This document shows, piece after piece, positions 4,254-61,872 of a DNA stretch of 64,000 nt. Numbering within the stretch: position 1 is the stretch's first letter; every line of letters begins with the position of its first letter. The notes under the pieces are model-generated. The model saw only the letters and a program-made list of their open reading frames with translations. It was not told where the DNA came from and ran no database searches. Position numbers and translations under genes: made by a program. This stretch comes from an uncultured Flavobacterium sp. (GTDB lineage Bacteria > Bacteroidota > Bacteroidia > Flavobacteriales > Flavobacteriaceae): contig CAZSOC010000001.1 of NCBI GenBank assembly GCA_964608415.1, positions 174,083-238,082 of the forward strand, read 5' to 3'.

Positions 4254-7200
4254 ATGAAAAAAATTATTTTATTAATTACCTTTCTTTTTTCAATTGAAGG
4301 CTTTTCCCAATGTACCAGGATGTGGATGTTCCCGTATCAAACTGTGTATTCCAATAATTTAGGAGGAGTTCAAATTGTAACAGAAGGAGTAAGTACATTA
4401 GAGTATTCGGAAGTAGGAGGATTAATTGTAGGAAATGATTATGAGTTTACATTAAAATCTTCACAATCAAACCATAAGTACATTACAATTACAGATTGGT
4501 CTAATACGGTTTTAGGTCATGGTTTCTCTCCATTAACTATTGAGAACATCACCTCTTCTGAAATAAGAATGCATTATGCAGAAAATTCGGAGTGCGTCAG
4601 TTCTGAAGATATAGTAAATACCTCAACTATTCAAAATTTAATAGATTGCCCTGCGCCATCAGATATTGAAATTGCTGAGATCAATACAACTACTGCAGAG
4701 TTTATGTGGTCGGCAGTAGCCGAAGAAACGGCATGGGAAGTTTTGGTATTAGAAGCAAATGCAACACCACCAACCGATTTGACTTCAGGAATTCCGGTTG
4801 AAGATATTCCTGTGTATGTTGCAGAAAATTTAGATCCGGGATCTTATTATATCATTTATATCCGGGGAAATTGTGGGGACGAATTCAGTCCTTGGAATAA
4901 GATGTCTTTTTCAACAAATTGTAACTTACTCGACGGCTTAAATGAAAATTTTGATGTAATTCCTTCTTCATACGAATATGGAGATCTTCCGGTTTGCTGG
5001 TCAAAAATTATTTTCCCGGAAAATAGCGATAGTGCTACATTAGGAACTGTAAATTATAATTCAAATTCCGGAGAGTATGCTGTTTCTTTATATAATGGAA
5101 ACTTAGGAAACACAGGGAATATTATTTTAGTTTCTCCCGAATTATCCAATTTGTCTGATGGAACCCACAGATTAAAATTTTATACTAAAACCGCTTACGG
5201 AAACGCATTTTTAGAAATAGGAACAGTTGGATCTACTGCTAATAACGCGCCATTTTCTTTCCTTGAAGAGGTTTCTGTAAATGATGTTTATAGTCAAAAA
5301 GTAATAGATTTTAGTTTGTATGAAGGAGCAGATACTCATATTGCGATTCGTTTAAAAAGCGAACAAAACTGGACCGGGGTTTTTGTTGATGACATAATAT
5401 GGGAAGTGTCACCACTTTGTCCGGATGTTACAGATATAAGCGTATTAAATACGGATATTGATTCAGCATTAATTTCCTGGGATATCGATGGTCTTGAAAC
5501 AAACTGGGAAATTGCCTATGCAGAATTTACAGTAAATGACCCTTCGGGACTTACTCCGTTGGTAACAGAAGACAATTTAGTAAACGAAATGACCATTACG
5601 GGATTAGAATCTAACACTAAATATAAAGTTTGGATAAGATCTGTATGTGGTGAAAATCTAGGTGCCTGGATTGGTCCTGTTGTGTTTAATACTGCCTGCG
5701 AAGCAATGGATTTGTTTGTTGAAGATTTTGAATCTGCTCAAAACAATGAGCTTCCGGAATGCTGGTCGTCTATTATAAGAGGTGAGAGTGTATCGTCTAT
5801 GGCTTCGGTGTCTATTGTACAAAATAGCGCTAATTCAGGGAATCAATGTGTTGCGTTTGATAGCTGGAACTCGGGTCTGGATTCAGATATTATACTTGTT
5901 TCTCCAAATTTAAGCACATTGAATACTGCAACTCATCGATTAAAATTTTATGCAAGAAGTTATAATAATTCCAGTATTCAGGTAGGAACTTTGAACTCTT
6001 CAGCTGGTTCTGCTGTTTTTACCAATGTTAAAAATGTTAATGTAACGACCAATTATTTGGAGTATACAGTAGATTTTTCAGATTATTTGGGTACAGATAC
6101 CTACATAGGAATCAGACATAATGGAGGAGATTGGAGTACAATTCTTATTGATGATATTCGTTGGGAAAGTATTCCTGATTGCGCAGATGTACAAAATATA
6201 TCAGTTCCTTTTACAACCTTAAATACTGCAACGATAACCTGGAGTCCCGGAGATGCTGAGCAAGAGTGGGATTTGGTTTATACAAGCGGATCAGTATCCA
6301 ATCCAAATACATTAACTCCTATTAATTTGACAGTAGGAGCAGATACAGAATATATAATTAATGAACTTTCACCAAATACTTCGTATAAAGTTTGGGTAAG
6401 ATCTGTATGTGGTGAAGATCTGGGTGCCTGGATGGGACCGGTTTATTTTTCAACTCCGTGTTCTCCTACAGATTTTTTTATAGAAGATTTCGAACAAACT
6501 GCTATGGAAGAAATTCCTGCCTGCTGGAGCTCTATTCTTAGAGGGCCAAGTCTTTCTTCTTTTGCTGGAGTATATGTTTTGGATTTTCAACCAATTGGAG
6601 GTTTGAAATCTATGACATTATCAAACGGTGTTTCCGGTCCGGGAACAGATATAATTTTGGTAACTCCATATTTGGAAAATCTAACAGCAACTCCGCATCG
6701 TTTGAAATTTAAAGCTTCAGCCAATTCATCGTCTAAAGTTCAGGTGGGAACGATAAATGTTGCCAACTCAAGTGGTGTGTTTGATTTTATTGAAGAATTT
6801 CAAGTAAATTCAAGTAATCAGGAATTCACCATAGATTTTACAGATTATGAAGGAGTAGATCGATTTATCGCTTTCCGTCATAGTAACGATGATTCTTTTC
6901 AAACGATTATTTTAGATGATATAAGATGGGAAGAGGTTCCGTTATGTTCGGATGTAACACAAATTCAAGTTCCTCAAATTACTGAAAATACTGCAACTGT
7001 TACCTGGAATACATCAGGAACAGAAACACAATGGCAAGTTGCTTATGGATTAGCAACAATTACAAATCCAAATACAATAACTCCTGTACCTTCTTTTCAG
7101 ACAGAAATTAATATTGACGAACTTCAGGATAATACTCTTTATAAAGTTTGGGTAAGATCTGTTTGCGGAGATAATTTTGGAGCCTGGATCGGAGCTGTTA

Positions 7201-19454: not shown

Positions 19455-19543
19455 GGAATAAAAAGGGACGTATAAATGAGTTGACTGCAAGTTTACATCA
19501 CAATTCTGCTAAAATGAAAATTAATCTCATAAAAAATAATCAA

Positions 19544-20038
19544 ATGGAAGCAAATTCGACAGACAAAAAAAAATTTCAACTTACCGAAAACGGACAACAA
19601 TTAGGAGAGCTGATTTACGAAAATGTATTTTTCCTTAAAGCAGAAATTAAACTGTCAAATTCAGAACTGTATGAACTTGCTCCAGTTGGTTTTTTTGGAA
19701 CAAGCATTGCAGTAACCAAAAACGGAGAAGAAATAGCAAGTTTAGTGATGAATTGGCGTGGACAAATTGTAATTACTTTTCAAGGCGGACAAGAAGTTGT
19801 TATAAAATTGATTGAATTATTCAACAATAAATTCATTATTGAAAATAAAGACCAAGAAAAGTTAATTCAACTTGAACTGAAATTTAATTGGAGAGAGTTC
19901 CATTATAATTACAATATTACATACGACATCACAAATGATAATATACCTAAGGATAATTTATTACTACTACTGGGTGTATATGCTGCCAACTATTTTGTAG
20001 CCACTATGGCAGGAGCTAACGCAGGAATGATGTATTAA
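19544..20038 (+). CDS. Hypothetical protein
   Basis: Open frame 19481-20038; ATG at 19544 (MEANSTDKK) preferred. Beta-rich with a C-terminal hydrophobic helix LLLLLGVYAANYF; family not recognised. Confidence 0.65.
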   Translation: MEANSTDKKKFQLTENGQQLGELIYENVFFLKAEIKLSNSELYELAPVGFFGTSIAVTKNGEEIASLVMNWRGQIVITFQGGQEVVIKLIELFNNKFIIENKDQEKLIQLELKFNWREFHYNYNITYDITNDNIPKDNLLLLLGVYAANYFVATMAGANAGMMY

Positions 20039-20040
20039 AC

Positions 20041-20241
20041 AACGAACCACCAATATCGGTTTTGTGATAGGCGGGTATGTACTTCTATGAAAAGTCATGA
20101 TTATTTAATAGTTATACCAACAGTAACACCAACTAAATCTATAGAAAGCGAATAATAAACAAACCCAATAAAAATGGGCAGCAGAAACTTTCAGCTTCGA
20201 TTTTCCGCCACTTCCCCCAAGTTATCAGAACATTAGACAAC
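20041..20241 (+). repeat. attC-like intergenic element E1
   Basis: Starts 2 nt after the stop: AACGAACCACCAAT-ATCGGTTTTGTGATAGGCGGG...TTCGATTTTCCGCCACTTCCCCCAAGTTATCAGAACATTAGACAAC; GGCGG/CCGCC arms are complementary. Confidence 0.5.
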
Positions 20242-20265
20242 AGTATTTTAGAAACTCAATAATGT

Positions 20266-48495: not shown

Positions 48496-50469
48496 ATGAA
48501 ATTAATTATTGCGTTACTACTCTTCTCTAATGTTTTATTCTCTCAAAAATACGAACTTGGAAAAGTATCCGTAAAAGAACTGGAAGAAAAACAACATCCT
48601 TTGGATACTGCTGCAGTGGCGGCTATTTTGTATAATAAAGTAGAAACGAGCTTTACATATAGCGAAAGCAGAGGTTTCATGGCAAAACATGAATTCGAGA
48701 TAAGAATTAAAATTTATAAAAAAGAAGGATTAAAATACGCGAACTATGAAATTCCTTATAGAATTAATTATACCAATCTCAATTCGGATGCTTTAGATAT
48801 TTCAAGTGCAAACACTTATAACCTGAAAAACGGTAAGATTGAGAGAACAAAACTTACTAAAGAAGGAGATTTGTTAGACAAAGTAAATGACTATTATAAA
48901 ATAAGAACTTTGTCTTTTCCTGAGGTTAGCGTTGGATCGGTAATAGAATTTAAGTACGTCCTGAAATCAGAAAATCTACTCACTTTTCCCGATTTTATCA
49001 TACAAAGAGAAATCCCTGTAAATTACTCGGAATACGTTACAAAAATACCGGTTACTTACGTTTATAAACCAATTGTTAAAGGTTTTTTGAATATTAAAAA
49101 TGATTCCAAACTAAATAATACCTCAATATCATTTACAAATAGCCAAACCAAAAGAACTGATAATTTAACGTTTCAGGAATTGATTTCGACACATTCAGCA
49201 CATAATGTTCCGGCAATGAACGAAGAATCTTTTGTAGACAATCTCAATAATTATAAGTCTTCTATAAAGTACGAATTGGAAATGATTCAATACAAAAACA
49301 GCCCCAATAAGAGTTTCTCTCAAACCTGGGAAGACCTGACAAAAACTTTGTATGAAGATGAAGACTTCGGAAAACAACTATTAGAACATAAACATCTGGA
49401 AGGAGATCTAAAAACTGTAACGTCCCATAAGAACGACGAAGAAAGGATGTTAGCAGTATTTAATCACATTAAAAATAAATTTACCTGGAATAAAAAAAAT
49501 GGAATTTATACCAATGACGGAGTAAAAAACGCATACCATAATAATACAGGTAATGTTGCCGAAATAAATTTCAACTTAATCTCGATGCTTAACATCTCAG
49601 GAATAAGAGCCACTCCTGTTATCCTGAGTACAATAGGTAACGGAATTGTAAGTTATCCTAATAGAACAGCTTTCAATTATGTTATTGCAATGGCAGAAAT
49701 CGGCAACAAAAAATATTTATTGGATGCTACAAACAAATATAGTCTGCCGGATATTCTTCCTCTAAATGTACTAAATTGGACCGGAAGAAAAATTTCAAAA
49801 TATGGAGATTATGAAGAAATAGATTTAAAACCTACAATTATTTCAAGGAATAATGTTGTCCTTTTTGCAAAATTAGACAAAGAAGGAACTATAACAGGTA
49901 AGGCAAGATTTCAAAAAACAGATTACCATGCTTTTGAGTTTAGAAATAAATTTTCAAATATAAACGAAGATCAATATCTCGAATATTTAGAAAACAGTTT
50001 AAATAAAATTTCAATAGAGAACTATAAAGTAGATAATTTAAATCAATTATCCAGTCCTGTCGTTGAAAGTTTTGATTTTGCTACAGAAAATCAGGTAGAC
50101 ATTATAGGAGATAAAATATACATAAATCCGTTACTTTTCTTTACAAAATATAAAAATCCTTTTAATACCGAAACCAGAGATCTCCCTATATATTTTGGTT
50201 ATCCGGATTCTAAAAAATACAATATTACCATAGAGATCCCGGAAGAATATGAAGTAGAATATTTACCTCAAAGTGTAAATCTTTCTACCGGAGAAAATGT
50301 AGCCTTTTTCAAATTTAATATAGGACAAAATGCCAATCAAATTCAGATTAATGCTAATTTTGATGTAAATTCAATGCTGGTTTCTCAGAATTTCTATTCT
50401 AATATTAAAGAATTTTATAACCAGGTGATTACTAAACAAACCGATAAAATAATTTTGAAGAAAAAATAA
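48496..50469 (+). CDS. DUF3857 + transglutaminase-like domain exported protein, catalytic residues apparently lost
   Basis: Paralog of the upstream gene; TGNVAEIN replaces GDCK, FNYVIA replaces NHII, LLDAT retained. Confidence 0.8.
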   Translation: MKLIIALLLFSNVLFSQKYELGKVSVKELEEKQHPLDTAAVAAILYNKVETSFTYSESRGFMAKHEFEIRIKIYKKEGLKYANYEIPYRINYTNLNSDALDISSANTYNLKNGKIERTKLTKEGDLLDKVNDYYKIRTLSFPEVSVGSVIEFKYVLKSENLLTFPDFIIQREIPVNYSEYVTKIPVTYVYKPIVKGFLNIKNDSKLNNTSISFTNSQTKRTDNLTFQELISTHSAHNVPAMNEESFVDNLNNYKSSIKYELEMIQYKNSPNKSFSQTWEDLTKTLYEDEDFGKQLLEHKHLEGDLKTVTSHKNDEERMLAVFNHIKNKFTWNKKNGIYTNDGVKNAYHNNTGNVAEINFNLISMLNISGIRATPVILSTIGNGIVSYPNRTAFNYVIAMAEIGNKKYLLDATNKYSLPDILPLNVLNWTGRKISKYGDYEEIDLKPTIISRNNVVLFAKLDKEGTITGKARFQKTDYHAFEFRNKFSNINEDQYLEYLENSLNKISIENYKVDNLNQLSSPVVESFDFATENQVDIIGDKIYINPLLFFTKYKNPFNTETRDLPIYFGYPDSKKYNITIEIPEEYEVEYLPQSVNLSTGENVAFFKFNIGQNANQIQINANFDVNSMLVSQNFYSNIKEFYNQVITKQTDKIILKKK

Positions 50470-50473
50470 AATC

Positions 50474-50800
50474 ATGCATCTCAAAAACGCACAACTCGAC
50501 GTAGACAACTGGATCAAAGAACACGGAGTACGCTATTTCAACGAATTGACAAATATGGCACAACTTACCGAAGAAGTAGGTGAAGTTGCACGAATTATTG
50601 CCAGACGTTATGGCGAACAATCCGAAAAAGAAAGTGATAAAGACAAAGATCTAGGAGAAGAATTGGCCGATGTGGTTTTTGTAGTTTTGTGTTTAGCCAA
50701 TCAAACAGGGATCGATCTGCAGGAAGCTTTCGATAAAAAAATGCAATTGAAATCCAATAGAGATAAAGACCGGCATAAGAATAATGAGAAACTCAAATAG
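50474..50800 (+). CDS. MazG-like nucleotide pyrophosphohydrolase
   Basis: QLTEEVGEVAR...LGEELADV acidic helix motifs. Confidence 0.88.
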   Translation: MHLKNAQLDVDNWIKEHGVRYFNELTNMAQLTEEVGEVARIIARRYGEQSEKESDKDKDLGEELADVVFVVLCLANQTGIDLQEAFDKKMQLKSNRDKDRHKNNEKLK

Positions 50801-50802
50801 CT

Positions 50803-52035
50803 GTGAAATTACATCTGGAACCATCAGTCATTCACAAAGAATCATCCGTTACAATTTCCGGAAGTAAATCCGAGACCAACCGATTGCTGTTACTTCAGGC
50901 GTTATATCCGGAAATTATTTTGGAAAATAGATCCAATTCAGACGATTCCGAAGTAATGGCAAAATCACTGCGAAGTAATTCCTCAGAAATAAATATTCAT
51001 CACGCCGGAACAGCCATGCGTTTCCTTACCGCTTTTTTTGCCATTCAGGAAGGAAAAGAAGTCATATTAACCGGTTCATCCCGAATGAAAGAAAGACCGA
51101 TAAAAATTTTGGTGGAAGCTTTAAATTGTTTGGGAGCCGAAATCAGTTATGAAGAAAATCAAGGTTTTCCACCCATCAGAATTAAAGGAAAAAAAATAAC
51201 CCGAAATAAAGTTTCGCTTCCGGCAAATGTAAGTAGTCAGTATATTTCCGCTTTACTATTAATTGCTCCGAAACTGGAAAATGGATTAGAATTAACACTT
51301 GAAGGGGAAATCACATCTATTCCATACATCAAAATGACGTTGGCTTTACTCAACGAAATAGGTATTGAAACCTCATTTGAAAATAACACAATTGTTGTCA
51401 CATCAAGCGCAATCGAGATGCCACATCAACTTGTAACAATCGAAAGTGACTGGTCATCAGCTTCCTATTGGTATTCCATCGTAGCTTTATCGGGAATAGG
51501 AGCACAAATTACACTTTCAAGTTACAAACAAAATAGTTTACAAGGCGATGCTGTTTTAGTTGAAATTTATAAAAAGTTTGGAGTCGAAACCGTTTTCAAT
51601 AACAATTCCATTACTTTACAGAAATCAAACAACTTGAAACCTGAAACGTTAACCCTGAAACTAAATAATTCACCGGACATCGCCCAAACCATCGCTGTAA
51701 CTTGTCTCGGAGTGGGAATTGGGTGTCACTTAACCGGATTACATACCTTAAAAATTAAAGAAACCGACCGATTGGAAGCGTTGAAAAATGAATTGACAAA
51801 ACTTGGAGCCAATGTTTCAGTAACTAATGATAGTCTGACATTGAAACCGTCAGGAATAATCAACGAAAACATTTCCATCAATACCTATCAGGATCACCGA
51901 ATGGCAATGGCTTTTGCTCCTTTGGCAATAAAAATTCCGATTATTATTAACGATGCAGAAGTTGTGTCTAAATCGTATCCTGATTTTTGGAATGATCTAA
52001 AAAAAATAGGATTTGATATTCTCGAAGAAGAATAA
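50803..52035 (+). CDS. aroA: 3-phosphoshikimate 1-carboxyvinyltransferase (EPSP synthase)
   Basis: SGSKSETNR, HAGTAMRF, SSQYISALL, IKETDRL, YQDHRMAM, KSYPDFW; GTG start. Confidence 0.96.
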   Translation: MKLHLEPSVIHKESSVTISGSKSETNRLLLLQALYPEIILENRSNSDDSEVMAKSLRSNSSEINIHHAGTAMRFLTAFFAIQEGKEVILTGSSRMKERPIKILVEALNCLGAEISYEENQGFPPIRIKGKKITRNKVSLPANVSSQYISALLLIAPKLENGLELTLEGEITSIPYIKMTLALLNEIGIETSFENNTIVVTSSAIEMPHQLVTIESDWSSASYWYSIVALSGIGAQITLSSYKQNSLQGDAVLVEIYKKFGVETVFNNNSITLQKSNNLKPETLTLKLNNSPDIAQTIAVTCLGVGIGCHLTGLHTLKIKETDRLEALKNELTKLGANVSVTNDSLTLKPSGIINENISINTYQDHRMAMAFAPLAIKIPIIINDAEVVSKSYPDFWNDLKKIGFDILEEE

Positions 52036-52218
52036 TCTACCACAGTTCTCTTATATCTTCTGTAATAATCAATTGTCGTTTTTTATCATTGACTGTTAAG
52101 AACATATGTGTTTATAATTCACGCTGTTTTTTTAAGCTATAAATACCAAAGTACCAAAACAAGCAAATGCAAAAATGTACTGGTTTTCGCGTTTAATCTC
52201 CATTTTTCCAATGGGGGT

Positions 52219-52231
52219 GTTATGTACAGGT
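52219..52231 (-). repeat. attC R''-like motif after the serine hydrolase stop
   Basis: Minus strand TAA-AAAT-ACCTGTACATAAC. Confidence 0.5.
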
Positions 52232-52236
52232 ATTTT

Positions 52237-53310
52237 TTAGTCAATTTGTTGAATAAAGTGAAAGACTATTTCGTTCAATAAATCATCTAATCTAAAATTT
52301 CCGCTCTTATTTGTCAAAACAGTAATAGCAAGGGATTCTTTAGGATATATTCTATATTCTGTTGTAGTTCCTTGATAACCTCCATTATGTCCAAAATAAT
52401 AGTTTCCGTAGAAATCTTTTATAGATGTGAAACCAAAACCATATCCTGTTTTTTTTCCGTCAAGCGTTTCTTGTGATTTTATAAGTTTCTTTATTGTCTC
52501 TTCTTTGAGTAATCGGTCTTTGTAAATTATTCCGTTGGCAAATTTTACAATATCTTCCGAAGTGGCAATATAACAACCTTGAGCATGTTTGAAAGTACAA
52601 TCTAAACAAGGAGCAAGAACATTTTTCCCTTTTTCTTCAATATAAAAATTGTTATTTAGAGCATCATTATCTTTGAAATCAGGCGTTATATTATCAAGAT
52701 TTAATTTATCCAAAATTAATTTTCTGTGGCAGTTGGTTATGTTATCTCCACACTGTTGCTCGATTATTAATCCAAGCAATTTATACCCGTAATTACTGTA
52801 ACTTAATTGTTTTTTCGGAATAAAAAGTAATTTATCTCTTTTGAAAGATTCATAAAAATCAGATTGTGAATATGTGTTTTTACAATCATATCTTTCTCCG
52901 GTTGGAACTCTAATTATTCCTGCTAAATGTCCTCCAACATCTTTAATTGTAAAGTCATATTCTTTTTTTGGTAAATTTTTTAAATATGAATAAACACTTT
53001 TATTTATATCAATGGAGTCCATCTCCATTAATTTTCCAATAGTTAAAGCGGTTAGACTTTTGGTCATACTTGCTATTCTAAATTTTGTTTTTGAAGGATT
53101 TATCGGTTCTTTCGTTTCTATATTTGAAACACCGAATCCTTTAGAATAAATAAGTTTGTCTTTATATGATATAGAAACAGATAATCCAGGTATTTTATTT
53201 TTTGTCTGAAAATTCTCAACTAATTTATCAGTTTTTTGAGTTGGTTTTTCAAAATTTTGACCATACGAATTTAATGTAATGGTAAGTAAGAATAATAAGC
53301 AATACTTCAT
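52237..53310 (-). CDS. Serine hydrolase (beta-lactamase class C / PBP-like family)
   Basis: SxxK (ASMTKS), YSN, GHNGG; signal peptide MKYCLL...SYGQ. ATG at 53310 preferred over GTG at 53334. Confidence 0.88.
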   Translation of the reverse strand: MKYCLLFLLTITLNSYGQNFEKPTQKTDKLVENFQTKNKIPGLSVSISYKDKLIYSKGFGVSNIETKEPINPSKTKFRIASMTKSLTALTIGKLMEMDSIDINKSVYSYLKNLPKKEYDFTIKDVGGHLAGIIRVPTGERYDCKNTYSQSDFYESFKRDKLLFIPKKQLSYSNYGYKLLGLIIEQQCGDNITNCHRKLILDKLNLDNITPDFKDNDALNNNFYIEEKGKNVLAPCLDCTFKHAQGCYIATSEDIVKFANGIIYKDRLLKEETIKKLIKSQETLDGKKTGYGFGFTSIKDFYGNYYFGHNGGYQGTTTEYRIYPKESLAITVLTNKSGNFRLDDLLNEIVFHFIQQID

Positions 53311-53333
53311 TTTTAAGGGTGATTTTTGATACA

Positions 53334-53419
53334 CTTGCCGACAACACAGGTAGTGCTTATTTCTTTTCGAATTTGCTAATTCTAAGGTTATAAGTTTTTT
53401 TCGCCCATTTATGGGCAGT
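53334..53419 (-). repeat. Compact attC-like element between amidohydrolase and serine hydrolase
   Basis: Minus strand ACTGCCCATAAA (53419-53408)...GTTGTCGGCAAG (53345-53334); 86 bp. Confidence 0.55.
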
Positions 53420-53423
53420 TTCG

Positions 53424-54764
53424 TTATTTGGCTAATGTGTTTTTATAGATTACACCGTTTTTCATTATAACCTTAAAATTGTTTTCGGGGTCTTCTACCA
53501 ATTTTAAATTTTCTAATGGATTTCCGTCTATGATAATCAGGTCGGCATAAGCTCCTTGTGAGATTTCACCTAATTTTCCTGCCGGATAAGGACTTCTTTT
53601 GCCACATAAAGCAAGTAATTCGGCATTGCTGGAAGTTGCCATTTTTAATGTTTCAAAAGGGGTAAACCATCGGGTCATTTTGGAAAGCTGTTTACCCTGT
53701 TTATCGGCTAATGTTGCGTCAAATAGACAATCGGTTCCCCACGCGAGCTTTACGTTATATTTTTTTGCTAATTTGTAAGCATTGTCTGTGCCATTGGTCA
53801 TTTCTAATTGTTTTGTCCTGTTAGCAGAGCCTTGCGGATATGGATTAGCTTCCTCATCATCTAAAAAGGGTTGCAGGCTCCACCAGATGTCTTTTTCTGC
53901 CATTAATTTTACAGTAGCTTCATCCGCTAGTTGTCCGTGTTCTATACATTTTATCCCTGCCGAAATAGCTGTTTTTATTGCTAATGGCGTATAGGCGTGA
54001 ACGGTTACGTAAGTTCCCCAATTTTCGGCAGCACTTACGGCAGCTTTGAATTCGGTTTCTGTATATTGCATAACATCCAAAGGGTCGTAATTAGAAGCCA
54101 CACCGCCACCAGCCATTAACTTGAGCTGTGTAGCTCCCTGTCGTAATTGTTCACGGGAACGAAGCAATACCTGGTCTGCACCATCTGCAATGGCAACCAT
54201 CCCATTTTTTTCGGCATAGGACATTTCACCAATTTTTCTGGGCACGTCGGTTGGCAGGCCAAAATCCCCGTGTCCGCCTGTTTGTGAAATAAATGCTCCA
54301 CTGGAAAAAACCCGGGGACCGGCAATCAGACCCATATCAATGGCTTTGGCTAATGTGAGTGAACCACCTCCCAGATCTCTTACGGTCGTAAAGCCTCTTA
54401 ACAATTGTTTTTCGGCAGCTTTTGCAGCAAATAAATTAAGGAAAGCGTAATCATACATCATCGCCTGCGTTTGGGAGATACTTTCAAACAACAAATGAGA
54501 GTGCGCATCTATTAATCCCGGTATTACATATTTTCCTTTGCCGTCAATAATTCTTGTGAGTCCACTTCTATCCGTTGCTATCGCTTCTGTAGAAATGGTT
54601 TTTATTAAATTGCCTTCGATTAAGATGTTTCCTTTTACAATTTTATTATCTTTTCCATTAAAGATATTGACATTATTGATCAATATTTTGTTGGGTTTTG
54701 TCTGCGAAAACACATTAGTAATAGATACTAACATGAAAAACATAATTACTATTTGTTTTGTCAT
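53424..54764 (-). CDS. Exported metal-dependent amidohydrolase (Xaa-Pro dipeptidase-like subfamily)
   Basis: PGLIDAHSH, GFTTVRDLGG, QLKLMAGGG, VTVHAY, IEHG, WGTD, ADLIIIDGNPL; signal peptide ...VFSQ. Confidence 0.88.
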   Translation of the reverse strand: MTKQIVIMFFMLVSITNVFSQTKPNKILINNVNIFNGKDNKIVKGNILIEGNLIKTISTEAIATDRSGLTRIIDGKGKYVIPGLIDAHSHLLFESISQTQAMMYDYAFLNLFAAKAAEKQLLRGFTTVRDLGGGSLTLAKAIDMGLIAGPRVFSSGAFISQTGGHGDFGLPTDVPRKIGEMSYAEKNGMVAIADGADQVLLRSREQLRQGATQLKLMAGGGVASNYDPLDVMQYTETEFKAAVSAAENWGTYVTVHAYTPLAIKTAISAGIKCIEHGQLADEATVKLMAEKDIWWSLQPFLDDEEANPYPQGSANRTKQLEMTNGTDNAYKLAKKYNVKLAWGTDCLFDATLADKQGKQLSKMTRWFTPFETLKMATSSNAELLALCGKRSPYPAGKLGEISQGAYADLIIIDGNPLENLKLVEDPENNFKVIMKNGVIYKNTLAK

Positions 54765-54850
54765 TTTCTTTTAATTTATTGTTTTGTTACAAGTACTCTG
54801 GACTTTTGTAAAATTGATCATATAGGGAATAGTATTGGCTAAGTTAAGAA

Positions 54851-54875
54851 AAAAGCCAATGCAAAAAGCATTGGC
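54851..54875 (-). terminator. Terminator of the ArsR-SRPBCC operon
   Basis: Minus strand GCCAATGC-TTTTT-GCATTGGC-TTTTTT. Confidence 0.75.
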
Positions 54876-54932
54876 AGCATACGAAGACGAAATGTTTGAT
54901 TTAGCGTAACTCTGCTATTTGGAAAAATAATT

Positions 54933-54944
54933 GTTATGGGCAGT
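54933..54944 (-). repeat. attC R''-like motif after the DUF1801 stop
   Basis: Minus strand TAA-AGAA-ACTGCCCATAAC; identical over 11 bp to 53409-53419. Confidence 0.55.
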
Positions 54945-54948
54945 TTCT

Positions 54949-55350
54949 TTATTTCAATCGTTCCAGAACTCCTTTTCGTTTTACGATGTTTTTATAGTCC
55001 CATTGTATGTCTCTCGATTTTTCGAGCCAGCGTTTTAAATCTTCGATATTAATTTCGGAAACCGAATGATAAAAAACAGAAGCGTCTTTAAATTTTTCTC
55101 CCTTTACTTTCAATGTTTCTTCGTCAAAATCTGCACCGCTCCAAAACATTAACCTTAATCCGCTTTTTTGTTTGCTGTAACCTGCTATCGGATTTCCGTC
55201 TAAAAACCAAACGGGATGTCTGTGCCAGATTTTGTTTTCGGCATCGGGCAGATGTTTTGTTATTTCTGTAGCCAGCAAATCGCAAATGGCTTTGTCTTCT
55301 GCCGTTTGTGATTTGTTGTAATCGAGTATGTCTTTTGAAATTGTTGCCAT
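54949..55350 (-). CDS. DUF1801 (YdhG-like) protein
   Basis: KIWHRHPVWF...IAGYSKQKSGLRLMFWSGADF pattern. Confidence 0.8.
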   Translation of the reverse strand: MATISKDILDYNKSQTAEDKAICDLLATEITKHLPDAENKIWHRHPVWFLDGNPIAGYSKQKSGLRLMFWSGADFDEETLKVKGEKFKDASVFYHSVSEINIEDLKRWLEKSRDIQWDYKNIVKRKGVLERLK

Positions 55351-55356
55351 AATTTT

Positions 55357-55860
55357 TTATTTTTTCAGTGTTAACAACAACTCGTCCAACTGATTCAAGC
55401 CCATTGTAAAGCCTTCTTTAAAGCCCATTGCTATGGTCGTTTCAAGGTCGGAAAGCGTATCGAATGTGAGCAATATATCAACTTGTACCTTATCCTCTTT
55501 TGTACTAAAACTATTTTCTACTAAATTTTGAGGTAATGATGGATTCATCGTCCCGTTTTCGTCGCAAAACCCATCTTTTTGACTAAAGGATTTTTCTTTT
55601 TCAATAGAAATGAAATTGGCTTTTGCCCAATGTTTTTCTCCTTCGGGACTTACCATTGCGTAGTGCCAAAATCCGCCTTCCCGAAAATCCATTGTTTTGG
55701 TTTCGGCTCTCCAAGGCTTGGGTCCCCACCATTGATCGAGCAATTCGGCTGTTGTCCACGCTTTCCAAACCAGTTCAATATTGGCGTTAAATTCACGAAT
55801 TACGTGAATAGTATTATTCTCCTTGTTTACGGAAAAATCAAATAAAAGATTACTGTTCAT
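55357..55860 (-). CDS. SRPBCC/AHSA1 (START-like) domain protein
   Basis: IREFNANIELVWKAWT..ELLDQWWGP...MDFREGGFW. Confidence 0.88.
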   Translation of the reverse strand: MNSNLLFDFSVNKENNTIHVIREFNANIELVWKAWTTAELLDQWWGPKPWRAETKTMDFREGGFWHYAMVSPEGEKHWAKANFISIEKEKSFSQKDGFCDENGTMNPSLPQNLVENSFSTKEDKVQVDILLTFDTLSDLETTIAMGFKEGFTMGLNQLDELLLTLKK

Positions 55861-55872
55861 TTTTTCTTGTTT

Positions 55873-56307
55873 TTAATGGTTATCTTTTTCTAAAAAGCCT
55901 TTCAATGAAACATTAATAATGTGGTTCCAGCCTGCTTCAAAATTGTGAATGGCAAAATCAGGAATTGCAGGGAATGTTTCAAATCCTGTGTGTGTTAGCT
56001 TTAAACGAGTATTTCCATTTTCATCAAACAATTCAAACGTAACGTAAGTAATGCCTTCGTAACCTTCATACCGCCAACTATACGTTAGTTTTTTTTCGGG
56101 AATAACTTCGGTCACTTCACATAGATGTTTGTATTGAGTTCCATCTTCAGATCCACCCATAAATTCAAACTGAAATCCTGTTTCGGGTTTAAATTCTTTT
56201 AAATCGAAATACCATTGTTTCATCATTTCTTTTTCGGTAATGGCTTGCCAAACCAGTTGTCTGTTGGCATTAAAGACACGTTCTACAATTACGAATTGCT
56301 CTTTCAT
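55873..56307 (-). CDS. SRPBCC/AHSA1 domain protein
   Basis: VERVFNA...VWQAIT...KQWYF...EVIPEKKLTYSW...TRLKLTHTGF...GWNH. Confidence 0.88.
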   Translation of the reverse strand: MKEQFVIVERVFNANRQLVWQAITEKEMMKQWYFDLKEFKPETGFQFEFMGGSEDGTQYKHLCEVTEVIPEKKLTYSWRYEGYEGITYVTFELFDENGNTRLKLTHTGFETFPAIPDFAIHNFEAGWNHIINVSLKGFLEKDNH

Positions 56308-56308
56308 C

Positions 56309-56764
56309 TTATTTTGATGTTAGTTGATTAAGATATTTTTCAAGTCGTTCAAAGTTTTGCGTTTGTTCTTCTTTGGCATTGAATGTATTGATAACCGCTT
56401 CGAGTATTTCTTTGGTATCAAACACCGAACTCCACTCTATTTGAGTTTCTTCGCCTTTGGCTTCAAAAAGAATAATGTCAATAAAATGCGGACTGAAATG
56501 CTCAAAAACGATTTTCTTTAGTGGGATAATTTCTTTAAAAATACTTCTCTTGGTATAGTCATATTCGGTAATGAGATTATAGAATGTCAGTTTCCATTCT
56601 CCTCCCTCTGTGAAATCCATTTTGTGAATGGTAGTGGTATGGTTATTTGGTCCCCACCATTGAGCTATGTAATCGGGTTCTGACCAAATTTTCCAAACGA
56701 GATCAATAGGTGCTTTTACCGTTCTCGTCATTTTTAGTTCTCTGTTGTTTGTGTTTTCCATCAT
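56309..56764 (-). CDS. SRPBCC/AHSA1 domain protein
   Basis: TRTVKAPIDLVWKIWSEPDYIAQWWGP...MDFTEGGEW. Confidence 0.88.
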   Translation of the reverse strand: MMENTNNRELKMTRTVKAPIDLVWKIWSEPDYIAQWWGPNNHTTTIHKMDFTEGGEWKLTFYNLITEYDYTKRSIFKEIIPLKKIVFEHFSPHFIDIILFEAKGEETQIEWSSVFDTKEILEAVINTFNAKEEQTQNFERLEKYLNQLTSK

Positions 56765-56770
56765 TTTTTT

Positions 56771-57148
56771 TTATAAATTAATTTTTCTTTGAGTAGGTCT
56801 GAAATACCAAGACACAACTGTCAGGATTAGAAGTAATGTCGGTCCAAATAGTTCAATAGTGTTATCTCCAACTGCCAGATGCGAAAAAATGGCTCCTGAC
56901 ATAAGGAAGAAGAATCCTGCATAAGCCCACTCTTTCAGTAAAGGAAATTTAGGAATAAGTACTGCTGTTGTACCCAATAATTTCCAAATACCGATAATGG
57001 TGAGAAAGTAGGTTGGATAGCCCAAAGCCAATGAAGTTTTATCAACTTCTTCTTTCATTTTTATGAGTTGGACAATGCCTGTTGAAAACATTCCCAGTGA
57101 CAACCAGATAGTTGCAACCCAATAGATAATTTTATTTCGTTTTGTCAT
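56771..57148 (-). CDS. DoxX-like family membrane protein
   Basis: LGYPTYFLTIIGIWKLLG...LKEWAYAGFFF; four TM segments. Confidence 0.85.
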   Translation of the reverse strand: MTKRNKIIYWVATIWLSLGMFSTGIVQLIKMKEEVDKTSLALGYPTYFLTIIGIWKLLGTTAVLIPKFPLLKEWAYAGFFFLMSGAIFSHLAVGDNTIELFGPTLLLILTVVSWYFRPTQRKINL

Positions 57149-57154
57149 ATTTTG

Positions 57155-57619
57155 TTATTTTAGTTTGTTTATAATTTCTTGTAGCCTGTTATGTGCCATA
57201 TTGATACCTTGTGTAAATGGCATTTGAAGTAATTGGTTTCTGAATTCAACGGACTTAAACACGATGTGCATAGTAAGTTTGCTGGTATCGTTTGTTAGTT
57301 TTTCAAATTCCAGATATTCAAGCTGAACGGGAAAAGGCGTATTTTCCATTTCAAAGGTTCGTATGATTTTTTGATTCGGAATAAACTCGTGTATTGTTCC
57401 GTTTGCCTGAAAAACCACATTTCCGTTGTGTGATGTTTCAAATGCATAGAAACCATGTTTTTTGTTTTCCATTTTCAACACTTTCGCTCCCATCCATTGT
57501 TCAAAAAGTTCGGGCTCTTCATAAGCTTTAAAAAGTAATTCCAGAGGCAGATCAAACTCCCTTGTGATTACGATTTCCTGTTTACCATTTTGGGCACTTA
57601 CTTTTGTTTTTTGTTCCAT
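57155..57619 (-). CDS. SRPBCC/AHSA1 domain protein
   Basis: ITREFDLPLELLFKAYEEPELFEQWMG...IIRTFEMEN. Confidence 0.85.
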   Translation of the reverse strand: MEQKTKVSAQNGKQEIVITREFDLPLELLFKAYEEPELFEQWMGAKVLKMENKKHGFYAFETSHNGNVVFQANGTIHEFIPNQKIIRTFEMENTPFPVQLEYLEFEKLTNDTSKLTMHIVFKSVEFRNQLLQMPFTQGINMAHNRLQEIINKLK

Positions 57620-57627
57620 ATTACGTA

Positions 57628-57954
57628 TTATTTTTCTTCTTCTTGTATTTTTTTAAGTACCGCTTCCAATTTGTTAAATCTGTCGTCCCACATTTTGCGG
57701 AATGGCTCAATAAAGTCGGCTACTTCTTTCATTTTTATTGCGTTAATGTGATAGTAAATTTCCCTGCCGCTTTGCTCTTTGGTTAGTAATTCGCATTCCG
57801 TAAGAATTTGCAAATGCTTTGAAACAGTTGGTCGTGCTGTATCAAAATTTGAAGCAATTGCTCCTGCTGTCATAGATTGCGAAGTAACCAAAAGAAGTAT
57901 AGTTCTTCTTGTCGGGTCGGAAATAGCTTGAAAAACGTCTCGTCTTAAACTCAT
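57628..57954 (-). CDS. ArsR/SmtB family transcriptional regulator
   Basis: [15 protein letters not shown]...[21 protein letters not shown]...QSGREIYY. Confidence 0.92.
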
Positions 57955-57972
57955 TATGAAGTCATTTGACTA

Positions 57973-58003
57973 CAAATATATGTGTAGTTAATTAACTACG
58001 CAA
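57973..58003 (-). promoter_or_regulatory. ArsR operon promoter with embedded perfect palindromic operator
   Basis: Minus strand TTG (58003-58001), 20-nt spacer, TATATTTG (57980-57973); GTAGTTAATTAACTAC palindrome at 57984-57999 lies in the spacer. Confidence 0.8.
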
Positions 58004-58065
58004 TTTTTTTCTTAAAAAATTTCTGATTTTTTATTCTATCGGCTGCAGGCGTGAGTTGGCATAGT

Positions 58066-58102
58066 CTTGTTGCTAATGGTTAGCGGTTTTTCCAAGCTGT
58101 GG
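58066..58102 (-). repeat. attC R'-like half element upstream of the ArsR unit
   Basis: Minus strand CCCACAGCTTGGAAAACCGCTAAC-CATTAGCAACAAG; its end resembles CATTAGACAAC at 20231-20241. Confidence 0.45.
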
Positions 58103-58363
58103 GTTTTTATGATAGCATGATTTAATTTCGTGGCTTTCTTTTAGGCGATACTTTGTGGTATATTATACATCTTAAAAGACTTTTATATTTGTTAACCGAA
58201 AAGAGCTTCTCGTTAACCGGGCTTATTTATTATAATGGTAAAAATTCAGGATAGTAATAACCATGTTTTAATTTAAAAAATAATTAAAAATCAAAAACAA
58301 AGGTTTTATTCACCCCGAATTGTTGAGTAAATGCATGGGTTTTTAAAATAAATCGGCTTTTAC

Positions 58364-58395
58364 TTGACAACCCCTGTTTTACAATCGTATATTTG
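58364..58395 (+). promoter_or_regulatory. queA promoter
   Basis: TTG at 58364-58366, 21-nt spacer, TATATTTG at 58388-58395. Confidence 0.75.
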
Positions 58396-58459
58396 CAACC
58401 GATTTGAAAAACAGTAACACAGTACGTTACTTTTAGGATCCCATCTTTTTTATTATACT

Positions 58460-59509
58460 ATGAAATTATCAAATTTTAATTTTAATTTACCAAAAGAACT
58501 TCTTGCGGAATATCCTGCAGAAAACAGAGATGAATCTCGACTTATGGTAATCAACAGAGCTGAGAAAACTATCGAGCATAAAATGTTCAAAGATTTGATC
58601 GAATATTTCGATGAAGGCGATGTGTTAATTCTTAACAATACCAAAGTTTTTCCTGCAAGATTATATGGAAATAAAGAAAAAACAGGAGCAAGAATTGAAG
58701 TTTTTTTACTTAGAGAACTCAACTCAGAACAAAGACTTTGGGATGTTTTGGTAGATCCTGCAAGAAAAATCAGGATAGGTAATAAATTGTACTTTGGTGA
58801 TGACGATTCATTAGTAGCAGAGGTTATAGATAATACAACATCTCGCGGGAGAACTTTGCGTTTTCTTTACGATGGTTCTTATGATGAATTTAGAAATAAG
58901 CTTACAGAATTAGGAGAAACTCCAATTCCAAAGTATATTTCCAGAGAAGTAAACGAAGAAGATGCAGAGCGTTATCAAACGATTTATGCAAAAGAAGAAG
59001 GAGCAGTGGCAGCTCCAACAGCAGGGTTACATTTTTCAAAACACTTACTTAAAAGATTGGAAATAAAAGGAGTAAATTTTGCAGAAGTAACACTTCATGT
59101 AGGTTTGGGAACGTTTAATCCGGTTGAGGTTGAGGATCTTTCTAAACACAAAATGGATTCTGAAGAGCTTAAAATTTCTCAGGAATCCTGTGATGTTGTA
59201 AATCAGGCAAAAGTGAATAAAAAAAGAATTTGTGCAGTAGGAACAACTTCAATGAGAGCAATAGAAAGTTCTGTGTCGTCAGCAAGAACATTAAATTCTT
59301 ATGATGGATGGACCAATAAATTTATTTTTCCACCTTATGATTTTAGTATCGCAGATTGTATGATTACCAATTTTCATACGCCAAAATCTACGTTGTTGAT
59401 GATGGTTTCTGCATTTTGCGGACATGACTTGATGAGAAAAGCATATGATGAGGCAATAAAAGAAAAATATAAATTCTATTCTTACGGAGATGCAATGCTT
59501 ATCCTGTAA
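58460..59509 (+). CDS. queA: S-adenosylmethionine:tRNA ribosyltransferase-isomerase
   Basis: [59 protein letters not shown]. Confidence 0.97.
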
Positions 59510-59524
59510 ATAAAAAGAAATGAG

Positions 59525-59554
59525 AAATCCCATCTATTTGATGGGATTTTTTTT
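59525..59554 (+). terminator. queA terminator (AAATCCC hairpin family)
   Basis: AAATCCCATC-TATTT-GATGGGATTT followed by Ts. Confidence 0.85.
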
Positions 59555-59760
59555 AGAGGCAAATTATGGAGATCATTTTACCTGATCGGTTTGCTTCATT
59601 CGTATTTTGATTTTTTGTCTGTTTCTTGCAAGGATTATCACTTCAATCGAGTCTAAGAATAATTTTTTTGAAAATATTCATAATTAACTGAAATTTCATT
59701 CCTAATAAGAAAACAGGTAATTGCTCAATTTTGTAAGTTTACACTAAATTATAATTCATT

Positions 59761-60480
59761 ATGTTTCGGCACAAAGGCAAAAGCAGAACGTATATTCATA
59801 ATTTAAGATTAGCATCGATTCTATCTTTTGTTGCAGGAATTGTAAATGTTACAGGAGTTTTGTCTGTAAAAACACTTACAACAAACGTAACAGGTCATTT
59901 TGCGTATTTTTCAGAAGAGATATCTTTCAAAAATTATAAAATGGCTATACTATATTTAGTATTTATTGCGTCATTTTTAATTGGGGCATTTGTATCAAAT
60001 TTATCTATAGAAATAATTTCACGGATAAAACCTCAAATATCTTATATAGTTCCAATGATAATGGAGATAATCATTTTAATTCTTATCGGAATTTTCGGAA
60101 TGTCTGATTTGGATGTGCAAATAATCGCTTGTGGGTTATTGTTTTCAATGGGTCTGCAAAATTCATTGGTTACAAAAGTTTCACAATCTGTGGTTAGAAC
60201 TACTCATTTAACGGGTTTGTTTACCGACTTAGGGATTGAACTTTCTCAATTATTCTTTTATCGGAAATCTACAGTATTTCAACAGTTATCAAAAAGTATT
60301 GTACTTAAACTGGCAATTATCCTTTGCTTTTTCCTCGGATGTCTTACCGGAGGTTTTGTTTTCAAAATTATAGCATTAAAAACACTGTTAGTGGCAGCAG
60401 TTTTTTTAGCCGGGGCTTTGTTTTACGATAGTGCATTACTGTATTATTATCATTTTAAACGAAAAATGAAATCCAGGTAA
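59761..60480 (+). CDS. YoaK/DUF1275 family membrane protein
   Basis: LSFVAGIVN, TTNVTGH, FSMGLQNS...VRTTHLTGLFTDLG. Confidence 0.88.
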   Translation: MFRHKGKSRTYIHNLRLASILSFVAGIVNVTGVLSVKTLTTNVTGHFAYFSEEISFKNYKMAILYLVFIASFLIGAFVSNLSIEIISRIKPQISYIVPMIMEIIILILIGIFGMSDLDVQIIACGLLFSMGLQNSLVTKVSQSVVRTTHLTGLFTDLGIELSQLFFYRKSTVFQQLSKSIVLKLAIILCFFLGCLTGGFVFKIIALKTLLVAAVFLAGALFYDSALLYYYHFKRKMKSR

Positions 60481-60591
60481 TATTGAAGCCGATTGTACGC
60501 CGGATACAATTTTTTATTATTTGGAAGCTCTTTTAAATTATTTTACCAATCAATCTTTTTTTCTATTTTTACCCCTATAAACAAACAACAA

Positions 60592-61872
60592 ATGGTTTTT
60601 CAAAATACACAAGAATTTGCACAGCAGCTTGATTCTCAAGATCAGCTTCATCATTATCGTAACGAATTTCATTTTCCGCAGGTAAATGGTAAAAAAGTAA
60701 TCTATTTTACAGGAAATTCATTAGGATTACAACCTAAACGTACCAAAAAATATGTAGATGAAATTATGAATGATTGGGCAAATCTTGCAGTAGAAGGGCA
60801 TTTTTATGCAGAAAAACCATGGTGGGATTATCACGAAAGATTTGCAGGACCATTAAGCGAGATTGTTGGTGCGCTTCCATCAGAAGTCACCGTTATGAAT
60901 ACGCTTACCGTAAATTTACATTTAATGATGGTTTCCTTTTATCGTCCGACAACCAAAAGATATAAAATTCTTTGCGAGGCAAAAGCATTCCCAAGTGATC
61001 AATATATGATTCAGAGTCAGGTGCATTTTCATGGATTGGATCCTAAAGATGCAATTGTGGAAATTCATCGCAGAGAAGGAGAACACAACATTAGGATAGA
61101 AGATATCTTGTCAAAAATAGAAGAAATTGGAGATGAACTCGCATTGGTCCTGATAGGAGGGGTAAATTATTATACCGGTCAGGTATTTGATATTAAAACG
61201 ATTACCGAAGCAGGGCACAGAGCAGGAGCTTATGTGGGGTGGGATTTGGCACATGCTGCAGGAAATATTAAATTAGAATTACATAACTGGAATGTCGATT
61301 TTGCTGCATGGTGTAGCTATAAATATATGAATTCTGGTCCGGGAAATGCTTCCGGATGTTTTGTACACCAAATGCATCATACGGATCCGGATTTGCCGAG
61401 ATTCGCCGGATGGTGGGGACATAATAAAGAACGCCGGTTTAAAATGGAACCTGCTTTCGATCCGGTTGAAGGAGCTAATGGCTGGCAAATTAGTAACCTT
61501 CCGATATTAACATTGGCACCTTATTTGGTTTCCGTAGAAATGTTTGCTGAAATAGGAATGGATAAATTAATCAAAAAAAGAGATCATATTACAGCCTATT
61601 TAGAATTTATTCTTCAGGAAATAGACAAGGAAGTCGATAGCACTTTTGAGATTATTACACCTTCAAATTCGGATGAAAGAGCCTCACAACTGTCTGTATT
61701 TCTACACGGTGAAGGCCGTCCTTTATTTGATTATCTCATGAAAAATGGTGTGATTACAGACTGGAGAGAACCTAATGTAATAAGATTAGCACCAGTGCCT
61801 TTGTATTGTTCTTATGAAGATATGTATGAATTCGGACAAATTTTAAAAGCAGGTATTCAATCATTACATTAA
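60592..61872 (+). CDS. kynU: Kynureninase
   Basis: YFTGNSLGLQPK, AFPSDQY, WDLAHAAGN, AAWCSYKYMNSGPG, GWWGH, IRLAPVPLY. ATG at 60592 (MVFQ) preferred over 60493. Confidence 0.95.
   Translation: MVFQNTQEFAQQLDSQDQLHHYRNEFHFPQVNGKKVIYFTGNSLGLQPKRTKKYVDEIMNDWANLAVEGHFYAEKPWWDYHERFAGPLSEIVGALPSEVTVMNTLTVNLHLMMVSFYRPTTKRYKILCEAKAFPSDQYMIQSQVHFHGLDPKDAIVEIHRREGEHNIRIEDILSKIEEIGDELALVLIGGVNYYTGQVFDIKTITEAGHRAGAYVGWDLAHAAGNIKLELHNWNVDFAAWCSYKYMNSGPGNASGCFVHQMHHTDPDLPRFAGWWGHNKERRFKMEPAFDPVEGANGWQISNLPILTLAPYLVSVEMFAEIGMDKLIKKRDHITAYLEFILQEIDKEVDSTFEIITPSNSDERASQLSVFLHGEGRPLFDYLMKNGVITDWREPNVIRLAPVPLYCSYEDMYEFGQILKAGIQSLH

Follow-up and report, generated by a model that had tools for sequence, protein, structure and literature searches.

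The window, a 64,000-nucleotide (nt) stretch of DNA from an uncultured Flavobacterium sp., corresponds to G000:C1:174083-238082, where G000 is the 2.9-Mb assembly of this genome. It carries an insert of 6.4 kb in the spacer between aroA (positions 50803–52035, plus strand) and queA (58460–59509, plus strand), and the insert and a family of attC-like repeat sites, remnants of which follow its genes, are the subject of this report. The insert reaches from the aroA stop codon to a conserved queA promoter block (52036–58362, minus strand), limits set by comparison with relatives. It is filled by nine minus-strand genes in three units, as identified from the list of open reading frames (ORFs) and Pfam. 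Unit 1 is a seven-gene operon (54949–57954) that consists of ArsR (57628–57954), followed within 54949–57619 by AHSA1, DoxX, three further AHSA1 genes and DUF1801, the four AHSA1 proteins being of the SRPBCC type. Unit 2 carries an Amidohydro_1 enzyme (53424–54764) and unit 3 a Beta-lactamase-family serine hydrolase (52237–53334, with an ATG at 53310). These ORFs, families and the three co-oriented units are as given in an original prediction made from the sequence of the locus.

The 6.4 kb is considered an insert because aroA and queA are neighbors in approximately 14 genomes of the same genus, where the two genes are 100–430 bp apart and the insert is absent. The spacers in these genomes end with the conserved queA promoter block, ...ACTTGACAAC.CCT....ACAATCGTATATTTGCA, which is found here at ~58362–58430. 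No recombinase is noted among the ORFs listed for positions 49000–61000 around the insert.

A short motif follows each unit, beginning 3–5 nt past its last stop codon: ACTGCCCATAAC at 54944–54933, ACTGCCCATAAA at 53419–53408 and ACCTGTACATAAC at 52231–52219, all three at the places where the original prediction had put them. The 14-mer GAAACTGCCCATAA has exactly two copies in the 2.9-Mb assembly, both in the insert, after units 1 and 2, and is itself not a genome-wide repeat. A link to a repeat family is revealed only by BLAST of the whole junction after DUF1801, which matches contig C6 of this genome (G000:C6) and several places in the relative G010. For the family's copies elsewhere in this genome, the box of 13 nt that begins the repeat lies within −12 to +15 nt of an ORF stop codon in 14 of 17. 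A lack of enrichment after stop codons genome-wide had been named as grounds for giving up the interpretation of these motifs as cassette junctions; those grounds fall away because 14 of the 17 boxes are near stop codons. Three motifs ahead of the units had also been proposed, and here the outcome is mixed. GTTGTCGGCAAG (53345–53334) is a cassette start, as homology with the metagenomic contig L071 begins exactly at its GTT. CTTGTAACAA (54793–54784) coincides with a homology boundary and does not fit the end rule of the family described below; it is not supported as a recombination core. CATTAGCAACAAG (58078–58066) shows no support as a recombination core; it is found in a non-coding stretch of ~300 nt on the queA side (58023–58319) for which no homologues were found, only positions adjoining queA and ArsR having any.

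The post-stop motifs of the window represent the 5′ end (R″) of attC-like repeats that are 140–225 nt long and form a family, defined here by alignments A1 and A2. Copies separate co-oriented genes in G010 and on other contigs of this genome, start at the stop codon with ..YAAC and finish with CGTT; one complete copy is G000:C6:87532-87755. The consensus is AAC-N6-YAAC ... GTT-R-N6-ATT, with AAC and GTT invariant, and the site layout is R″(AAC-N6-YAAC), L″, a variable center, L′ and R′(CGTT). The family displays the imperfect inverted repeats R″-L″...L′-R′ with AAC and GTT ends that are typical of attC (alignment A3 was also used for this comparison), and the window contains only relics of them. 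The arms form a consensus stem of 19 pairs, 14 of which show compensatory changes. All 33 sites display an A.C mismatch on the top strand that becomes a G.T pair on the bottom strand, because of which the bottom strand folds better. It is the more stable strand in 29 of the 33 sites, by a mean of −1.85 kcal/mol. The strand stability and the A.C/G.T position are indirect signs that recombination may proceed through the folded bottom strand.

A covariance model of the family gives matches in 21 of 25 genomes of the genus, this one included, and outside the genus in 6 of 16, with 1–2 matches each. This genome has 25 matches, and as many of these are at the ends of small contigs, the array in this genome appears fragmented in the assembly, its pieces including contigs C58, C69, C90, C91, C98, C108, C109, C114, C120 and C132. 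The four genomes of 5.3–5.7 Mb carry neither the recombinase class described below nor sites, except for one borderline match in G001 (E = 6.4e-4).

The boundaries between consecutive sites follow a rule. In 16 of 17 consecutive pairs, the N6 that follows GTT-R in one site agrees, at a minimum of 5 of its 6 positions, with the reverse complement of the N6 that precedes YAAC in the next; the single miss is a parsing error. Complementarity to the R″ box of the same site is found in none of the 17. The rule is also obeyed on G000:C90 and on L071. In addition, G010 carries an 861-bp segment duplicated at 99.4% identity that extends from ACGTTAGTGGCT to CCGTTAT, the duplicated unit consisting of a gene and one site. 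The site of this duplicated cassette begins with AGCCACTAAC, the reverse complement of the cassette start. What follows GTT is part of the next cassette, in line with a G|TT crossover as in integrons.

Units 2 and 3 are shown by sequence comparison to be bona fide cassettes, since their closest homologues carry complete sites at the matching boundaries. Unit 2, the amidohydrolase unit, occupies 53409–54795 (minus strand) as delimited by nucleotide homology with L067, a contig of GCA_964454645.1 and the closest relative, with 87% identity over 1384 nt. From ~54789–54795 the homology extends precisely to the final base of GAAACTGCCCATAA. The L067 gene is situated between rny/Mpo1-like genes and a TonB receptor gene, and directly after it comes an attC-like site that is complete (L067:7340-7495, 60.6 bits, E = 1.7e-11). 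The R″ of this site, AGAACATACCCATAAC, is orthologous to the R″ that follows the amidohydrolase gene in the window. Unit 3, the serine-hydrolase cassette (gene 52237–53310/53334), is delimited by homology with L071 to 52219–53345 (minus strand), with the G of GTTGTCGGCAAG at one end and the TAAC of ACCTGTACATAAC at the other. Identity with L071:4561-5687 is 82% over 1128 nt, starting with the first base of GTT (53345) and stopping immediately beyond TAAC (52218). The L071 homologue, with 85% amino acid (aa) identity, is situated between two complete attC-like sites (4420–4584 and 5669–5829) and its ends obey the complementarity rule (GTTATCTGCA / TGCAGATAAC). The same complementarity has decayed to 3 of 6 positions in the window.

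The amidohydrolase is also unusually conserved across phyla, with aa identities of 82% in Chitinophaga, 76–77% in Acinetobacter and 76% in Echinicola, a pattern that points to a recent and wide horizontal spread of the gene.

The three sites of the window are recognized by homology and are incomplete. attC_A, identified by nhmmer and BLAST, is the 5′ 116 nt of a long-form site (54833–54947, minus strand). The R″ box AACTGCCCATAAC and the first internal module are still present, as are an L″ arm that has decayed and, ahead of a T-run, a terminator-like hairpin with the sequence GCCAATGC-TTTTT-GCATTGGC. Beyond this the site breaks off and lacks its 3′ half, to which L′ and R′ would belong. Against the long-form profile attC_A gives E = 8.7e-16 with nhmmer, covering profile positions 2–116 only, and BLAST aligns it to copies on G000:C6 and in G010. 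The covariance model gives 19.3 bits (E = 0.035) and the L″ half-profile 6.8 bits. A specific orthology of attC_A to the amidohydrolase attC of L067 was considered and is unsupported, the best matches being generic long-form sites.

attC_B (53334–53422, minus strand, 89 nt) is recognized by orthology and by the identity of its 14-mer with that of attC_A. Its 5′ end keeps the R″ box AACTGCCCATAA-A, and its 3′ end keeps the R′ core and the start of the next cassette, GTTGTCGGCAAGT from 53345, the R′ being confirmed by orthology with L071. In folds of attC_B the L″/L′ stem is lost and only a 6-bp palindrome, GCCCAT-AA-ATGGGC, is left.

attC_C (52165–52238, minus strand, ~74 nt) is recognized by local alignment and corresponds to the 5′ part of a long-form site, from the R″ box ACCTGTACATAAC through the L″ arm (CATTGGAAAAATGGAG) to the first internal module. 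Alignment with the G010 site at 1092184 scores 39 without the R″ box and 58 with it, compared with a maximum of 31 in 200 shuffles. The R″ box matches that of G000:C90:1781, ACCTGTACACAAC, at 12 of 13 positions, and the covariance model gives 13.1 bits (E = 0.86). There is no recognizable L′ or R′ before the aroA stop codon. The tail of this junction, GCGAAAACC, was considered as an L′-R′ remnant and rejected, as the alignment places it in the first internal module. Half-site profiles built from G010 (R″+L″ and L′+R′) do not detect junctions B and C and barely detect junction A.

A candidate recombinase is encoded elsewhere in this genome. Contig C18 (160–1200) carries a 346-aa tyrosine recombinase of the type found at arrays, the only copy of its class here. 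Members of the class are ~350–400 aa in length and score ~205 bits with TIGR02249, below the cut-off of 265, with model positions 180–234 unmatched. The IntI-specific domain is lacking: residues 185–242 of VchIntIA (PDB 2A3V) correspond to 16 residues. With XerA (5HXY) the alignment runs end to end without the IntI gap, and NF040815 gives 227 bits against a cut-off of 220. The recombinase also has an N-terminal extension of ~75 aa. In G021, 20 sites are found within 14.5 kb directly downstream of the recombinase gene and on the same strand; G013, G009 and G006 display the same arrangement, and in G010 and G007 it is divergent. A motif, GTATATA-MA-RAGTT-R-N6-ATT, is present ~100–160 nt past the recombinase stop codon, is conserved in 7 genomes, and ends in a cassette start. 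It is a putative attI-like site at the start of the arrays. The recombinase family is spread across Bacteroidota. With a covariance model built only from eight G010 sites, sites were found at 12 of 49 recombinase loci in other Bacteroidota, and all 15 matches are downstream and on the recombinase strand.

Taken together, the insert is very probably a fossil cassette cluster of an integron-like system native to this Flavobacterium lineage. A cassette in this system consists of a gene or small operon and a folded site of 140–225 nt, and arrays begin at the attI-like motif beside the gene of a Xer-type recombinase. This enzyme would excise and insert cassettes through a folded single strand. The cluster in the window is without an integrase, its three sites are eroded, and its cassettes would no longer be mobilizable. 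The original prediction had inferred junctions of a site-specific gene-cassette system. The identity of the junctions stands, the motifs being R″ ends of a family that obeys the integron boundary rule; the array is a fossil and not active, because no site of the window reaches significance with the covariance model. Two further suggestions also hold. A recombinase encoded elsewhere is matched by the candidate on C18, which is accompanied by the attI-like site and heads arrays in relatives, and a Bacteroidota-specific variant, rather than a classical integron, is consistent with a recombinase without the IntI-specific domain and with sites that have their own consensus.

Several observations weigh against this interpretation. 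With filters off, the covariance model finds no significant site over the whole window, the best E-value being 0.035. In its interior, attC_B has no detectable similarity (its score is 17, the median for shuffles being 20). The end rule is broken at the 5′ boundary of unit 2, ACTTGTAACAA, both here and in L067. Seven genomes of the genus carry at least two sites and no recombinase of this class, and that the recombinase would act on these sites is suggested by adjacency only. The closest DUF1801 homologues (83–88% identity) are found in ArsR operons without an attC downstream, and GTTATGGGCA, the cassette start expected from the R″ of attC_A and attC_B, is absent from the window. A search for a cassette start upstream of ArsR found none.

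These last points bear on an explanation in which only units 2 and 3 are cassettes and unit 1 is an ordinary accessory operon, joined through illegitimate recombination at AAATAA to the 5′ end of another copy of the amidohydrolase attC. Such a history is a real possibility that falls somewhat short of an even chance. In addition to the DUF1801 homologues and the lack of a matching 5′ end, it accounts for the 14-mer after DUF1801, which is identical to that of the amidohydrolase, where it is orthologous and native, and which is not explained by a crossover at R′. A microhomology join of the 5′ end of a second amidohydrolase attC behind DUF1801 is suggested because both genes end in AAATAA, and it remains speculative. 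On the other side, multi-gene cassettes with their own regulator exist in the system, L071 carrying 3- and 6-gene cassettes with regulators. ArsR/AHSA1 modules are also found between sites, as cassettes, on G000:C91, and the R″ box is situated 3 nt past the DUF1801 stop codon as in true cassettes. Unit 1 as a multi-gene cassette, or a fusion of cassettes, is plausible but unproven.

The ArsR-AHSA1-DoxX core of unit 1 is common to relatives, where it is found at other loci. A perfect 16-bp palindrome, GTAGTTAATTAACTAC, is present at 57999–57984, ~30 nt upstream of the ArsR start codon and inside 68 nt conserved with the ArsR operons of relatives. It is probably the ArsR operator.

It is very unlikely that the array of the window is still active and that its junctions are functional, though unusual, recombination sites. 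attC_B does retain both end boxes, R″ and R′, and its 89 nt fall within the size range known for classical attC sites. However, the window sites score 13–19 bits with the covariance model, compared with 45–150 bits for working copies, and although three sites are identifiable by homology, none passes the model at E < 0.01. In addition, the L″/L′ stems are lost, R′ is lacking in attC_A and attC_C, and the complementarity of the unit 3 ends is reduced as described above.

That the repeats are miniature inverted-repeat transposable elements (MITEs), repetitive extragenic palindromic (REP)-type elements or post-gene terminators, unrelated to cassette recombination, is highly improbable. In favor of this reading, they are imperfect palindromes in intergenic DNA, the long form has a terminator-like hairpin with a T-run, and reverse-strand matches exist. 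However, both ends of a MITE belong to one element, whereas here an end box pairs with the neighboring element and not with the other end of its own, which excludes this reading. Moreover, the duplicated unit in G010 is a gene with one site, a tyrosine recombinase anchors the arrays in many genomes, and Rfam shows no relevant family, either for the insert region at E ≤ 10 or for the array loci at gathering thresholds.

A chance relation of the three short post-stop motifs, for which it can be said that in the window alone 11 of 100 shuffles gave at least two matches at two or fewer mismatches, is negligible in view of the exactly two exact copies in 2.9 Mb at an equal offset from the stop codon, the significant homology of the flanking sequence to the repeat family, and the complete sites carried by orthologous cassettes.

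Other observations concern the sites themselves. The long form (215–225 nt, alignment A1) has an internal G+C hairpin with a T-run on the coding strand, followed by TAATTTAG, which resembles the −7 box of Bacteroidota; the hairpin copy in the window is at 54878–54846 (minus strand). Long-form sites may terminate the transcription of one cassette and perhaps help start that of the next. Two solo or array sites that are otherwise complete, L067:7340-7495 and L071:5669-5829, display mutated crossover triplets (TTT and CTT in place of GTT), which may represent point-mutation "locks" that immobilize a cassette.

A second decayed cassette is found in the window at 19516–20245 (plus strand). It consists of an ORF (19516–20038) and a degraded site of ~200 nt that starts 2 nt past the stop codon and keeps GGTTTTGTGATAGGCGGG ... 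CCGCCACTTCC, with ATT replacing GTT. Profile matches are weak only: 11.4 bits (E = 0.92) with the 5′ half and 21.7 bits (E = 1.3e-4) with the long form.

Sites are also interrupted by insertion sequences (ISs). An IS on G010:C1 that encodes a 514-aa DDE transposase (DDE_Tnp_1_6/DUF772) is found at the same position in at least six sites, at the R′ core ..ACG | TCAGGCTGTGAA.. (L041/L057/L058/L043; e.g. 896111, 915098, 1070697, 1085638, 1088892 and 1094791). It is a site-specific IS that targets the recombination core and is analogous to the IS1111-attC elements. A divergent ORF beside a G010 cassette was considered as an integrase and rejected, as it is the transposase of such an IS (DDE_Tnp_1_6/DUF772). 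In G000 a different end, CGATGTGGCGAAAT, likewise interrupts three sites (C30, C69 and C98).

The cassette start GTTAGTGGCAAGC follows the attI-like site (C18:1-162) and also two different sites (C120 and C109), each at a contig end (L060, L165, L166). Either this cassette is present in three copies or the population is polymorphic in cassette order.

The aroA-queA spacer is a general insertion hotspot. In G022 this spot is occupied by another insert, of 5.8 kb and unrelated (L021, G022:C4:204500-213000). It encodes a LytTR two-component system, consisting of the response regulator and a sensor kinase of 952 aa, and a secreted repeat protein of 591 aa, and it is free of attC-like sites. The large-genome relatives G008, G001 and G012 (L031, L032 and L033) display a palindrome of ~110 nt with perfect arms in this spacer, TTTGTCATTTCGACGAAGGAGAAATCT..CGCAAG..., which is a different repeat element and unrelated to the attC-like family.

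The accepted hallmark of integrons is IntI, an integrase with an additional domain that reads the extrahelical bases in attC. Known forms, surveyed in PMC9024848 and PMC8618304, include sedentary chromosomal integrons, e.g. the Vibrio cholerae array with its homogeneous VCR sites (Vibrio cholerae repeats), and CALINs, clusters of attC sites lacking integrase (at least two attC and no integrase within ~4 kb), as well as "inverted-integrase" integrons, e.g. that of Treponema denticola. In the Flavobacterium system, as in integrons, the cassettes share one orientation, mostly hold a single gene and terminate in an imperfect palindrome that runs from ..AAC at the stop codon to GTT. It shares with them the G|TT crossover signature, a covarying stem with strand asymmetry, homogeneity of sites at the level of the lineage, and an array that has at one end a tyrosine recombinase and a putative attI-like site. 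Scattered clusters without integrase, such as that of the window, would be comparable with CALINs. Unlike integrons, the recombinase is without the IntI-specific domain and has the N-terminal extension, the R boxes are 13 nt (AAC-N6-YAAC / GTT-R-N6-ATT), and the strand asymmetry derives from the invariant A.C/G.T position and not from bulged bases. The length of the sites, 140–225 nt, and the terminator-like hairpin of the long form also differ, and the array is usually 3′ of the recombinase gene on the same strand. The system would work like an integron and has a layout that resembles the inverted-integrase type, with a recombinase that falls outside IntI.

XerA resolves chromosome dimers at dif. 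The Flavobacterium enzyme is like XerA-type recombinases in aligning with them end to end (PDB 5HXY and 4A8E; NF040815, "site-specific tyrosine recombinase/integron integrase"). Unlike XerA, it heads cassette arrays and has an extra N-terminal domain.

Surveys report integrons to be almost absent from Bacteroidota. IntegronFinder 2.0 reports for Bacteroidetes only In0 elements and one Salinibacter integron, and nothing for Flavobacteriia (PMC9024848); reviews give integrons in Bacteroidota at the phylum level only. No account of integrons in Flavobacterium came up in full-text searches of the literature. Among the systems described so far, the nearest is rAID-1, the recombinase-associated acquired interbacterial defense clusters of Bacteroidales (Ross et al. 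2019, bioRxiv 10.1101/471110). [quoted passage not shown] It is defined there by orphan type VI secretion system (T6SS) immunity cargo and by a recombinase with at least 44% identity to BF9343_RS08045 (10.1101/471110). Judged by the layout given in those passages, the G021, G013, G009 and G006 arrays are like rAID-1, and both systems are found in Bacteroidota; the comparison is inapplicable to the window locus, which is without a recombinase. Unlike that of rAID-1, the cargo of the window is metabolic and regulatory (ArsR/SRPBCC, amidohydrolase and serine hydrolase), and the same passages contain neither a folded-site model nor a cassette-end rule.

A wider reading, for and against which the scales stand about level when it is taken as a whole, is that Flavobacterium, and Bacteroidota more widely, has its own integron lineage in which a Xer-type recombinase captures cassettes via folded single-stranded sites. 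The recombinase would never have had the IntI insertion, or would have lost it, the A.C/G.T asymmetry would replace extrahelical bases in the choice of strand, some sites would have a built-in terminator, and rAID-1 would be a branch specialized in its cargo. Such a system would be invisible to integron surveys because the integrase criterion, and probably the attC model, of the standard tools fail. In this reading the aroA-queA block would show how cassettes leave an array and come to be fixed as ordinary chromosomal genes. The window is a case of cassettes outside an array, located between housekeeping genes, with sites eroding from the 3′ side and genes retained, among them the amidohydrolase with its identity of ~76% across phyla. 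In annotation, such relics can be flagged by AAC-N6-YAAC, the short box after the stop codon. In comparison with integrons, a full cassette grammar and arrays of up to dozens of cassettes are here tied to a recombinase without the IntI domain, and if the C18-type recombinase is responsible, cassette capture through folded DNA does not need that domain, and a large reservoir of mobile genes would have gone unnoticed in environmental and fish-associated Flavobacteriia.

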